64,000 bases of DNA from IMG/VR virus record IMGVR_UViG_3300026478_000749, positions 1 through 64,000 of that record. One strand, given 5' to 3'. This document shows, piece by piece, positions 5,517 through 47,835 of this stretch. The stretch is from a virus. Within the stretch, counting starts at the first letter, position 1; each line of letters opens with the position of its first letter. The notes under the pieces are model-generated. The model saw only the letters and a program-made list of their open reading frames with translations, was not told the origin of the DNA and ran no database searches. A program made the position numbers and the translations under genes.

Positions 5517-6170
5517 TTAAAAATCCGGATACCTTTTTGTTTCTCCGTATTTGTTTCTTGCTACCGATTCTATTCTATTATTAATATCCACAGAAGAACC
5601 TATTTGTGTATTAACTTCTCCCTTTCCTTTCACATCTCCGTCAGATAATGCATTTGGGTGAACGCTTGAATAACGATTTTCTCCGTTATAAACATTTTTG
5701 TTTACTAGTTCTGTTCTAGTGTTTATATCTGTTAATGAACCAACCTTTCCATTATTTTCTCCTTTACCTTTTTCGTCACCATCAGAAACTGCATTTGGAT
5801 TTGTTGCACTATACCCTTTAACATTACTATACGTGTTTTTGGATAGTAATTCAGTTCTGGTGTTTATATCTGTTTTAGAACCTATTGTTAGAGTTTCACC
5901 TTTACCTTTTTCATCACCATCAGATAATGCATTTGGGTTATTTGAATCATAACGATTGTCGCTAGAATAAGTGTTTTTAACTAAATTGTTTATTCTAGTT
6001 TGAATATCTGTCGCTGACCCAATTGTATTTGTCTCTCCTTTACCCTTATCATCTCCAGTAGATAACGCATTTTCATGGGTTGTTGCATAACCGTTTTTAT
6101 CGATATACGCATTTCTAGATAAATGCTCTTGTCTCTGTTTTTCTGCGATTATTTCTAATTGTGTTGGCAT
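5517..6170 (-). CDS. protein built from four ~46-47-aa repeats
   Basis: Repeat N.Y....Y....NALSDGDEKGKGE...GS.TDI..R occurs four times. Confidence 0.85.
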   Translation of the reverse strand: MPTQLEIIAEKQRQEHLSRNAYIDKNGYATTHENALSTGDDKGKGETNTIGSATDIQTRINNLVKNTYSSDNRYDSNNPNALSDGDEKGKGETLTIGSKTDINTRTELLSKNTYSNVKGYSATNPNAVSDGDEKGKGENNGKVGSLTDINTRTELVNKNVYNGENRYSSVHPNALSDGDVKGKGEVNTQIGSSVDINNRIESVARNKYGETKRYPDF

Positions 6171-44782: not shown

Positions 44783-47218
44783 ATGAAAGTACTAAAAAGA
44801 GATGGAACGTTAGAAGAGATGAGATATGACAAGATCACTAAAAGAATTAGTGCTCTATGTGATGATCTTAATATGGATTATGTTGACCCAACATTTATTA
44901 CACTTAAAGTTACTCAAGGAATTTATGATGGAATATCAACTAAAGAGTTGGATGTACTAGCAGCAGAAACTGCAGCATCTATGACAACAACACATCCTGA
45001 CTATGCAAAATTAGCAGGAAGATTAGCTGTCACAAATTTACACAAGACAACACCAAAGAAGTTTTCTCAGGCTATTAAAGAATTACATTCTTTTATTGAG
45101 CCAAAGACTGGTAAAGAGTCAACATTAATTTCTGATGAAGTGTATGAATTTGTAATGGACAATAAAGAAATTATTGACGGTGCAATCAACATTACAAGAG
45201 ATTTTGATTTTGATTATTTTGGTTTTAAAACTTTAGAAAGATCATATCTTTTAAAGATTGGCGAAAGAACAGTTGAAAGACCACAGTACATGTATATGAG
45301 AGTTGCTGTTGGTATTTGCAATGGTGATGTCCAAATGGCATTGAGAATTTATGACGATTTATCACAACATTTTTATACACATGCAACACCAACATTATTT
45401 AATGCTGGAACACGCAGACCACAAATGTCATCATGTTTCTTAATTGGAAACAAAGGTGATGATATCGATGGATTATTTGATACAATCAAAGATGTTGCGA
45501 AAATTTCTAAATGGGCTGGCGGTATTGGTCTACATGTTCACGATGTTCGTGCTAAAGGTGCTTATATTAAAGGTACCGGAGGTATGTCAGATGGCTTATT
45601 ACCAATGATGAAAACCTACAATGAAGTTGCTCGTTGGATTAATCAAGGCGGTAAAAGAAAAGGTTCTTTTGCAATTTATCTTGAGCCATGGCATTCAGAT
45701 GTGTTGGAATTCATCGATCTAAGAAAGAATCACGGTAAGGAAGAAATGAGAGCTAGAGATTTATTCTTAGCTATGTGGACACCAGATTTGTTTATGCAGC
45801 GCGTTGAATCTGATGGCGATTGGTCATTATTTTCACCAGACGAAGCACCAGGACTTTCTGATGCATACGATACACCGGAAGACAAAGCATTTACTCGTTT
45901 ATACGAACAATATGAGTCAGAAGGTAAAGCTAGAAAGGTGATGAAAGCCAGAAAACTTATGGACGCTATTTTAACAGCACAAATTGAGACAGGTACACCA
46001 TACATGTTATATAAAGATGCTGCTAATTATAAATCAAATCAAAAGAATTTAGGTACAATTAAATCCTCAAATTTATGTACTGAAATCATTGAATATAGTT
46101 CACCAACAGAACAAGCGGTGTGCAACTTAGCTTCTATCGCCCTACCAAAATATATTTTAGATGGTGAATTTAATCATCAATTATTATTTGAATACACTTA
46201 TCAAGTTGTTAAGAATTTAAATAATGTTATTGATTTGAATTTTTACCCAACAGAAGAAACTAAAAGATCTAACTTCAAACATAGACCAGTTGGTTTGGGT
46301 GTACAAGGATTAGCAGATGTGTTCTGCATGTTGTCACTACCTTTTGAAAGTGAAGAGGCAGATAAATTACAAACAGAAATTTTTGAAACAATTTATTTTG
46401 CTGCAGTAACATCATCAAAAGATATTGCAAAAGAAGTTGGGGCATATGAATCTATTTCCGGTTCACCAATAGAAAAAGGTATTTTCCAATACGAAATGTG
46501 GGGTAAGACAGATAAAGATATGTCTGGAAGATGGGATTGGAAATCCTTGAGAAAAGAAGTTGTAAAGTATGGTGTTAGAAATTCATTACTTGTTGCACCA
46601 ATGCCAACGGCATCAACTGCGCAAATTTTAGGTAACAATGAAGCGTTCGAACCATTTACAACAAATCTTTATTCAAGAAGAACATTAGGTGGTGAATTTA
46701 TTGTTGTAAACAAACACTTGGTTAAGGATTTAATGAACTTAGGCTTATGGAATGAAGAATTGAAAAAGAAGTTAATTCTTGAAAACGGTTCTATTCAAAA
46801 CATCCCAGAAATCCCTACACCGATTAAAGAAGTTTATAAAACTGTTTGGGAAATGTCTCAAAAGAGAATTTTACAAATGGCCGCTAACAGAAGTATTTTT
46901 ATTGATCAATCACAGTCAATGAATTTATTCATCGACAATGCAACAAAAGCTAAAGTACTTGCTGCTCATTTGTTCGGTTGGAAATTAGGTCTTAAAACTG
47001 GTATGTATTATTTGAGAACAAGATCTGCCGTTGATCCAATTAAAGGTTTAGGTTTAGATACATCAACAGTAAAACCTGTTGCTGAAACACAGCCAAAACA
47101 ACAAACAACATATACTACGCCTCAAAATACAATTATAAGTGAAGAAACACCTGAAGTTGTAATGATGGCTAGTAGACCAGATGATTCCCCATTTGAGTGT
47201 GAAGGATGTGGATCGTAA
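44783..47218 (+). CDS. nrdA: ribonucleotide reductase class Ia alpha subunit with ATP cone
   Basis: MKVLKRDG ATP cone, TPTLFNAG, SSCF, SNLCTEI, PTAST, TGMYY, C-terminal CEGCGS. Confidence 0.97.
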   Translation: MKVLKRDGTLEEMRYDKITKRISALCDDLNMDYVDPTFITLKVTQGIYDGISTKELDVLAAETAASMTTTHPDYAKLAGRLAVTNLHKTTPKKFSQAIKELHSFIEPKTGKESTLISDEVYEFVMDNKEIIDGAINITRDFDFDYFGFKTLERSYLLKIGERTVERPQYMYMRVAVGICNGDVQMALRIYDDLSQHFYTHATPTLFNAGTRRPQMSSCFLIGNKGDDIDGLFDTIKDVAKISKWAGGIGLHVHDVRAKGAYIKGTGGMSDGLLPMMKTYNEVARWINQGGKRKGSFAIYLEPWHSDVLEFIDLRKNHGKEEMRARDLFLAMWTPDLFMQRVESDGDWSLFSPDEAPGLSDAYDTPEDKAFTRLYEQYESEGKARKVMKARKLMDAILTAQIETGTPYMLYKDAANYKSNQKNLGTIKSSNLCTEIIEYSSPTEQAVCNLASIALPKYILDGEFNHQLLFEYTYQVVKNLNNVIDLNFYPTEETKRSNFKHRPVGLGVQGLADVFCMLSLPFESEEADKLQTEIFETIYFAAVTSSKDIAKEVGAYESISGSPIEKGIFQYEMWGKTDKDMSGRWDWKSLRKEVVKYGVRNSLLVAPMPTASTAQILGNNEAFEPFTTNLYSRRTLGGEFIVVNKHLVKDLMNLGLWNEELKKKLILENGSIQNIPEIPTPIKEVYKTVWEMSQKRILQMAANRSIFIDQSQSMNLFIDNATKAKVLAAHLFGWKLGLKTGMYYLRTRSAVDPIKGLGLDTSTVKPVAETQPKQQTTYTTPQNTIISEETPEVVMMASRPDDSPFECEGCGS

Positions 47219-47224
47219 GATAAT

Positions 47225-47310
47225 GGGTGGCGCCCTCAAAGTTTAGCTGTCGTCAAGGCGTACCTTGAGCATCCAGGACTTGACAATACAGGGTGCGAAT
47301 ATCAAGTCAC
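47225..47310 (+). ncRNA. candidate structured RNA (hairpin plus H-type pseudoknot)
   Basis: GC-rich island: TCAAGG/CCTTGA hairpin, and GCATCC/GGGTGC crossed by GACTTGA/TCAAGTC. Confidence 0.5.
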
Positions 47311-47316
47311 AATACT

Positions 47317-47345
47317 AAAACCCAACTTCGGTTGGGTTTTTTATT
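47317..47345 (+). terminator. intrinsic terminator with cUUCGg tetraloop
   Basis: AAAACCCAAC-TTCG-GTTGGGTTTT followed by TT. Confidence 0.9.
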
Positions 47346-47379
47346 TATATCCATTTTAGTATTGTTTATATTTATTGAT

Positions 47380-47835
47380 ATGGCTACAAAATATGGTATA
47401 GATTTTCCTTTTAGAAATAGCGCGTTAGGTGACTATACTAGAATGACATTGAATATAGATGAAGAGGTAAGAGCAAACCTTATTCATTTGCTATTGACTA
47501 GAAAAGGAAGTAGATATTTTTTACCTGACTTTGGCACTAGATTATATGAATACATATTTGATTTAAACGACAGTATTACTTATAGCAGTATAGAGGATGA
47601 GATTAGAGAAACTGTTAAAATTTACATACCAAATCTAGAAATAAACGCAATAAAAATAACTAATCCTGATATAGATCCAGAAGACGGTGCCTCAAGCATT
47701 AGTGAAGATGAAGATACCAGATTATTTAGAGTTGGCGATGGTTCTACTAAACCATATACAGCTAAAATAAGAATTGATTATACAACAAATAATGGAACAT
47801 TTTCCAGTTCCGACTTTGTAATTATTAACATATAA
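47380..47835 (+). CDS. baseplate wedge / sheath initiator (gp25-like)
   Basis: GIDFPF, NLIHLLLTRKGSRYFLPDFGTRLYEYIFD; ATG start at 47380 follows TATTTAT. Confidence 0.9.
   Translation: MATKYGIDFPFRNSALGDYTRMTLNIDEEVRANLIHLLLTRKGSRYFLPDFGTRLYEYIFDLNDSITYSSIEDEIRETVKIYIPNLEINAIKITNPDIDPEDGASSISEDEDTRLFRVGDGSTKPYTAKIRIDYTTNNGTFSSSDFVIINI

Follow-up and report, generated by a model that had tools for sequence, protein, structure and literature searches.

We are highly confident that the DNA downstream of the reductase gene nrdA in the phage analyzed here encodes a plus-strand, transcribed RNA domain of ∼85 nt, which consists of two adjacent hairpins joined by a loop-loop helix. The topology is that of the kissing loops of two neighboring hairpins, with the strand order A B A' C B' C', and the knotted element lies in the 3' UTR of nrdA, starting 5 nt past its stop codon.

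The window, by which we mean the whole stretch of 64,000 nt that was analyzed, is held by an 86-kb IMG/VR phage record with a CheckV completeness of 28%, and since the contigs of relatives reach 316 to 334 kb, we consider the phage to be a giant one. The genes around the element are ordered as DnaB-like helicase, nrdB, nrdA, element, terminator, gp25-like baseplate gene, and Baseplate_J gene, and NrdA carries the Pfam domains ATP-cone, Ribonuc_red_lgN, and Ribonuc_red_lgC (E 1.3e-200). In GenBank, nrdA matches Tenacibaculum phages (67 to 71% identity), a likeness that is the sole ground for our weak guess that the host belongs to the Bacteroidota. A preliminary description of the locus had pictured a GC-rich island in AT-rich DNA, and this is what we see: the GC content of 90-nt segments over 47170 to 47319 is 0.47 to 0.49, versus 0.26 to 0.37 in most flanking segments and ∼0.30 in the surrounding DNA. 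Elsewhere in the window, a Thr/Pro-rich sequence is encoded at 63027 to 63696 by imperfect direct repeats of 18 and ∼87 nt in long arrays, and positions 5554 to 6116, coding on the minus strand by appearance, hold four to five tandem units of ∼138 to 141 nt with 64 to 84% identity, probably a repeated protein domain. The features of the nrdA 3' region, all on the plus strand, are as follows.

44783 to 47218, plus strand: nrdA, class I RNR alpha chain of 811 aa, with its TAA stop at 47216 to 47218 (open reading frame and Pfam)
47219 to 47223, plus strand: spacer GAUAA from the stop codon to helix A, its final two A nearly invariant (alignment conservation)
47224 to 47229, plus strand: 5' strand of helix A, UGGGUG, pairing with 47270 to 47275 (covariation; RNAalifold)
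47230 to 47236, plus strand: 5' strand of the kissing helix B, GCGCCCU, in the loop of hairpin A, pairing with 47290 to 47296 (covariation)
47240 to 47248, plus strand: optional mini-hairpin H0, AGU/GCU, 3 bp (covariation)
47253 to 47268, plus strand: optional hairpin H, UCAAGG, loop CGUA, CCUUGA (covariation)
47270 to 47275, plus strand: 3' strand of helix A, CAUCCA (covariation)
47276, plus strand: one-nucleotide linker between hairpins A and C, G here and U in some relatives (alignment)
47277 to 47283, plus strand: 5' strand of helix C, GACUUGA, pairing with 47302 to 47308 (covariation)
47284 to 47289, plus strand: loop linker CAAUAC with an invariant AAU (invariant columns)
47290 to 47296, plus strand: 3' strand of helix B, AGGGUGC, in the loop of hairpin C (covariation)
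47297 to 47301, plus strand: loop linker GAAUA with an invariant AAU (invariant columns)
47302 to 47308, plus strand: 3' strand of helix C, UCAAGUC, inside which three RNA-library contigs end at G47306 (covariation; contigs)
47309 to 47316, plus strand: 8-nt spacer to the terminator, with A47309, C47310, and A47312 invariant (invariant columns)
47317 to 47346, plus strand: intrinsic terminator with a 10-bp stem, a cUUCGg loop, and a U-run, outside the conserved fold (terminator scan)
47380 to 47835, plus strand: gp25-like baseplate wedge protein, first of the structural genes (Pfam GPW_gp25, E 6e-11)

The structure rests on a comparison of 72 distinct members of the family, gathered by an NrdA search, by pattern scans, and with a covariance model, R1. 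The structure of that model comprises A, H0, H, and C, to which the final alignment was thus fitted, favoring these helices; helix B lies outside the model, so that the alignment was not fitted to it. Standard pairs fill 96.6% of the 2008 pair cells, and changes on both sides occur in 10 of the 29 pairs (125 cells). The covariation score is 0.224, versus at most 0.061 when the partners are slid by one to three columns, and none of 500 shuffles reaches it; our first alignment, made of 38 sequences with MAFFT only, agrees closely (96.9% paired, score 0.223). Helix A has six pairs, with 99.5% of cells paired; its pair 13-72 is A-U in 37 members, U-A in 35, and unpaired in none. Helix B has seven pairs and is 95.4% paired, with both-side changes in three pairs, one of which, 17-98, takes six pair types and is unpaired in no member. 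Helix C, also of seven pairs and 95.4% paired, has two covarying pairs, 79-111 (U-A in 50 members, A-U in 21, G-U in 1) and 80-110 (C-G in 37, U-G in 25, U-A in 10). Within the loop of hairpin A, where both optional hairpins sit, H0 is 93.8% paired, its third pair being U-A in 47 members and C-G in 10, and H is 97.9% paired, with both-side changes in three pairs. RNAalifold by itself finds helices A and C. When the pairs are placed on a tree of the gp25 gene (82 rows), each covarying pair has changed from at least 4 to at least 14 times, pair 13-72 at least 9 times; recombination may inflate these counts, though both sides of a pair always move together.

The 127-nt stretch folds at -36.8 kcal/mol, compared with -28.4 ± 3.2 for 200 shuffles (z -2.63, none as good), a figure that includes the terminator, and the minus strand folds comparably (z -3.09), so that thermodynamics alone settles neither the structure nor the strand. 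Conservation and covariation among relatives, the comparison that the preliminary description had suggested, were both found and make the stretch more than a product of chance. As for the strand, 161 of the 2008 cells are G-U or U-G, which would be A-C mismatches on the other strand; the folded strand is therefore that of the mRNA, as had been proposed from G-U pairs.

Every segment named in the preliminary description lies where it had been placed when the sequence is read directly, and its central idea, a pseudoknotted plus-strand RNA in the nrdA 3' UTR, is borne out by the conserved, covarying fold of the 72 members, as are its hairpin TCAAGG/CCTTGA, our H, and its stem GACTTGA/TCAAGTC, our helix C. 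The arrangement of the knot has to be redrawn. What had been described as an H-type pseudoknot, a stem GCATCC/GGGTGC crossed by GACTTGA/TCAAGTC, is knotted indeed but consists of two kissing hairpins. The GCATCC/GGGTGC stem would be paired in only 88.1% of cells, and its central pair is impossible in 26 of the 72 members; the true partner of CAUCC is the upstream UGGGUG, which had been overlooked. Because the same C-rich strand always pairs with the G-rich strand of helix A, and in view of the 26 failures, we reject the GCATCC/GGGTGC stem. Conversely, GCGCCCT/AGGGTGC, previously offered as a mutually exclusive alternative, is the conserved helix B. The two-state switch built on this pair of stems is thus unsupported, one of them failing covariation and the other being part of the conserved fold.

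The members range in length from 57 to 87 nt. In the short forms, of which one type follows nrdA (as in L007) and another follows a different RNR (as in L184), so that they occur in at least two backgrounds, H0 and H are deleted, and A, B, and C are retained with a 6-nt linker. H0 is lengthened to 5 bp in one member (L203), and other members carry differing short inserts. Helix B is apparently shifted by one position in L050, L060, L181, and L195, as read off the alignment and left uncounted. About a dozen unpaired nucleotides are invariant: the A before helix A, the AAU in both linkers around the 3' strand of helix B, and the A, C, and A after helix C. The linker at the position of GAAUA, which leads from helix B to the 3' strand of helix C, is 5 nt long in all 72 members.

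Among the members gathered, the element is tied to reductase genes. In viral contigs, 91 stretches (58 distinct sequences) fit a strict pattern, and all those with enough upstream sequence follow the stop codon of an RNR alpha gene; a looser pattern gives at least 117 stretches, the non-RNR matches listed scoring at most 15 bits with the covariance model, on which true members score at least 58.7 bits. A pattern requiring a changed helix C pair finds no stretch. Metagenome contigs contain 46 pattern stretches, namely 33 true members, all after an RNR stop, and 13 chance matches. Bacterial and archaeal genomes give at least 120 pattern matches, with no member among those listed and a best model score of 19.8 bits. 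The model also has weak matches upstream of nrdA (21.7 bits, five loci) and at 974 to 1028 (19 bits), which we set aside as chance matches in coding sequence. Mean pairwise identity over 58 loci is 0.79 for the element, compared with 0.69 for the last 99 nt of nrdA and ∼0.60 downstream; the element is thus conserved more strongly than the surrounding genes.

It also holds its place despite a change of reductase. One subclade has a different RNR in place of nrdA and nrdB, with the same flanks: the helicase lies upstream, the element follows the alpha stop, and gp25 follows the element. The replacement alpha chain has 592 aa, lacks the ATP cone, and shares 26% identity with the NrdA of the window; its beta chain has 365 aa. 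The swap is found at L163 (1443 to 4341, minus strand) and in L116, L127, L102, L115, L117, L123, L134, L159, L169, and L184.

The distance from the stop codon is tightly kept. Helix A starts 5 nt past the stop in 31 members, 6 nt in 34, and 7 nt in 7, and the stop codon is TAA in 72 of 72. Such spacing, maintained after two unrelated RNR alpha genes, would suit a device coupled to translation termination, in which the ribosome at the nrdA UAA reaches into helix A and unfolds it, so that the fold reports or exploits translation of the message; a ribosome holding the 5' strand of helix A would free CAUCC for GGGUGC, a pairing compatible with 88.1% of cells. We think this reading very improbable, given that the close spacing may simply mirror a compact genome and that 26 of the 72 members have a mismatch in the middle of the alternative stem, at its central pair. 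Products of read-through or bypass are excluded by length differences of 1 nt, which break the frame; a coding role was likewise rejected, since the frame of the window is open past the TAA, but neither the spacer (5 to 7 nt) nor the length of the element (57 to 87 nt) varies in steps of 3 nt.

Retention of the element is far from universal. The NrdA search of viral contigs returned at least 593 related places, the best 80 of which were analyzed. The element is present in 47 of the 74 loci with more than 150 nt past the stop (37 distinct sequences, counting the window). In the other 27, a short AT-rich spacer with a terminator takes its place, and some of them hold remnants, for example L027. 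In L027 and L028, the first 40 nt past the nrdA stop contain the remnant GATAATGGGTAATACCCATAAAGTACTA followed by unrelated sequence, which shows that the element was lost by internal deletion and had not been absent from the outset. Presence and absence have changed at least nine times on the gp25 tree, and the element has been lost repeatedly. Four large phage contigs contain one copy each, and a fifth, of 251 kb, lacks the element, its nrdA 3' region holding only a remnant.

Repeated gain and loss is common for counter-defense cargo, and a fold followed by a terminator is the layout of 3'-UTR-derived small RNAs, to which the nuclease-resistant RNAs of flaviviruses are analogous. The accessory character of the element and the position of its knotted fold, at the start of the 3' UTR and ahead of a terminator, would by this analogy suit a stable trans-acting RNA (a small RNA, a decoy, or a sponge, perhaps directed at a host factor or defense system) that, with or without the terminator, outlives the decay of the message. 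We hold such a role to be distinctly unlikely: no target or partner is known, and the unbroken RNA contigs from nrdA to the element, described below, neither show nor exclude a separate small species.

Downstream, the hairpin at 47317 to 47346 is the only terminator-like site nearby, and a hairpin with T5 follows the element in 69 of the 72 members. Helix C and the terminator hairpin are 6 to 20 nt apart, most often 8 nt, and the terminator stems of the members are of many unrelated sequence types. Many relatives (L007, 5500 to 5560; L012, L020, L029, L032) have as their terminator a CGCGACA...TGTCGCG hairpin with one or two additional half-copies of the word GCGACA(C/T)TTT in front of it; this arrangement resembles a repeated family of terminators or boxes that is specific to the phages. 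A strongly conserved AT-rich block lies after the terminator and ahead of the gp25 start codon, both in the window (47341 to 47382) and at the same place in relatives; it reads TTTATTTAT...GTTTATATTTAT and ends ∼5 nt before the ATG. This block is retained even in loci that lack the element, which makes it a candidate late promoter or translation start region.

The near-constant distance to terminators that themselves differ raises the prospect that the element is a sensor controlling the terminator 8 nt downstream and thereby setting early read-through into the baseplate genes. It could be a riboswitch-like aptamer, e.g., for a (d)NTP, or it could bind a protein of the phage or the host, or RNA polymerase in a manner comparable to the put RNA of phage HK022. 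The invariant unpaired nucleotides in the linkers and after helix C would fit such a device, as would a link to RNR that outlasts a change of RNR type and the one nucleotide between the hairpins, putRNA being ∼70 nt with two polymerase-binding stem-loops in the accessible text of PMC9378689. Nevertheless, we rate the sensor as rather unlikely. Terminator stems of unrelated sequence leave no room for a conserved competing pairing with the element, which deprives the sensor of the usual expression platform; together with the interchangeability of the terminators, this argues against a classical riboswitch. Moreover, the Rfam riboswitch models give no match, the baseplate gene has its own conserved upstream sequence past the terminator, and put sites, according to the same part of PMC9378689, directly follow early promoters instead of closing an operon.

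Comparison with catalogued RNAs places the element outside every family of Rfam 15, in keeping with the preliminary description, which had recognized no known ribozyme or riboswitch in it. At gathering score, the 64 kb of the window have no Rfam 15 match. A scan of 47100 to 47450 with E values up to 10 gave nine matches, all terminator look-alikes or chance and pistol not among them, the best being istR (22.2 bits versus a threshold of 45). ARAGORN found no tRNA or tmRNA, and blastn of the 98-nt element found no match in GenBank phages. Two simpler identities were considered and discarded. That of an intrinsic terminator is excluded because the sole terminator-like site lies outside the fold. 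That of a repeat or mobile element is contradicted by a single model match per large contig and by the lack of a repeat at the site: no repeat family covers the element, and a search of the 86-kb record returns only the element itself and a 12-nt chance match.

The stretch is present in river metagenomes and in six river metatranscriptome runs, and 14 DNA runs contain all sampled words of 46700 to 47700. Logan contigs were compared for four of the RNA runs (X15, X16, X17, and X18), and in all four libraries a single contig joins the nrdA coding sequence to the element. The X15 contig continues to 47408. Those of X16, X17, and X18, which are three coded studies but possibly one campaign, stop exactly at 47306 with no loose end; in these three, 47307 to ∼47402 is uncovered, from which we draw no inference. 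No metagenome contig ends at the homolog of base 47306. We take the shared end as a weak hint of an RNA end, bearing in mind that contigs cannot show true RNA ends and that the stop may be an assembly effect: base 47306 lies exactly 30 nt past 47276, which is G or U in the family, so that a strain variant there would break a k=31 graph at this very point, and a variant at 47307 would do likewise. None of the relatives that were fetched creates a k-mer branch at 47306. The position is inside a covarying helix (columns 110/111), a poor fit to the simple stalling of an exonuclease outside the structure, and the dinucleotide at 47306/47307 varies among members (GU, GA, or AA).

A shared end near the 3' end of the fold, invariant linkers, and a helix order like that of pistol, in which a hairpin loop pairs between the strands of a second stem (PMC4604425, in the part available), could together indicate a new class of self-cleaving ribozyme with the pistol strand order and a cut near its 3' end. 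We find this very unlikely. The putative end, G47306/U47307, falls between the covarying pairs 80-110 and 79-111, where the geometry is ill suited to in-line attack, and the dinucleotide there is not conserved. In the available part of its description, the pistol ribozyme (Rfam RF02679; Harris et al. 2015, PMC4604425) has a P3 stem and a 2-nt, mostly GU, junction at the cleavage site. Unlike pistol, the element has no P3, and the 5-nt GAAUA (47297 to 47301) stands in place of P3 and the strict 2-nt GU junction; the loop of hairpin A pairs, through helix B, between the strands of stem C, and without P3 the "junction" is merely the loop of hairpin C. The candidate end likewise lies inside helix C and not in a junction. 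The pistol family model, which includes 10 highly conserved nucleotides, has no match in the element even at E 10. The hairpins of pistol are separated by an A-rich linker, those of the element by 1 nt. Resemblances remain in that both are small and phage-associated, in that a hairpin loop forms a pseudoknot of 6 to 7 bp between the strands of the second stem, and in that the candidate RNA end of the element lies near the 3' end of the fold. The absence of P3, of the 2-nt junction, and of an Rfam match argues against membership in the pistol family.

Having weighed these readings, we tentatively favor, as a reasonable possibility, that the element acts in cis to set or protect the 3' end of the reductase message. 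Such a 3'-end module is suggested by the compactness of the knot, by its location where the 3' UTR begins, by the adjoining terminator, and by the hint of an RNA end. According to this working model, the early helicase-nrdB-nrdA message would carry a compact knot between the stop codon and the terminator, and the knot would decide where the mature 3' end lies and shield that end from nucleases. It might do so as a processing site, for example through a single-strand cut in a quasi-continuous C-B-A helix, or as a barrier to exonucleases; RNase III makes single-strand cuts in T7 early mRNAs. Both the nuclease action and the fate of the mRNA are things that we infer. A pure stabilizer looks dispensable, given that the terminator hairpin already protects the 3' end and that 27 of 74 relatives do without the element. 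In addition, a ligand, a protein, a polymerase, or a ribosome would also be a fitting partner for an element with these invariant unpaired nucleotides and with such tight spacing to either side. It is quite improbable, yet worth stating, that the knot is catalytic or mechanical in a way undescribed for bacterial phages, i.e., a P3-less pistol-like ribozyme or a nuclease-resistant RNA of the bacterial world; if so, the reductase message would owe its mature 3' end, at or near G47306, to the knot.

Time and again, small RNAs that are tightly knotted and carry a dozen invariant unpaired nucleotides have proved to act as ribozymes, as riboswitches, or as handles for proteins or polymerases. The present one stands at the border of early (replication and nucleotide) and late (baseplate) genes in a large group of uncultured giant freshwater phages and, whatever its role, would join a very small number of 3'-UTR structures that have been defined in the messages of phages or bacteria. 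Should it be a mere message stabilizer, it would be a modest addition to the orphan RNA motifs. At 57 to 87 nt, it is easily tested at the bench. It may be among the candidates of a 2023 survey of IMG/VR intergenic regions, which reported 8495 new, anonymous candidate structured RNAs of 29 to 151 nt (PMC10690425, in the part available) and whose main text contains no occurrence of ribonucleotide reductase or nrd. Our full-text literature search found no description of the element, the supplementary alignments of PMC10690425 lying outside that search; in PMC10879173, RNR appears only as an analogy.

Among phage RNAs, the put RNA of HK022 is close in size and layout. As far as the available part of PMC9378689 describes it, put acts on distant terminators; like the element (for which action in cis is our inference), it is a phage RNA of ∼70 to 85 nt with two neighboring stem-loops upstream of a terminator. 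The element differs in standing at the end of an operon, 3' of a 2.4-kb gene and 5 to 7 nt past its stop, and in having a loop-loop helix, of which that part of the put description makes no mention. A second comparison is with exonuclease-resistant RNAs, where the likeness lies in a pseudoknotted fold that opens a 3' UTR and in a junction or loop that pairs with downstream sequence. These xrRNAs begin the 3' UTRs of flaviviruses and plant viruses and block a eukaryotic 5'-3' exonuclease; the element, by contrast, has no sequence or model match to them, nor is there evidence of a 5' boundary at the element. Finally, the 3' ends of T7 early mRNAs are made at RNase III processing hairpins, which are simple, irregular, and unknotted. 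The element differs from these sites in being knotted and in that its cleavage is only hinted at by contig ends, but it resembles them as a structured intergenic element that would leave the upstream message with a paired, protected 3' end.
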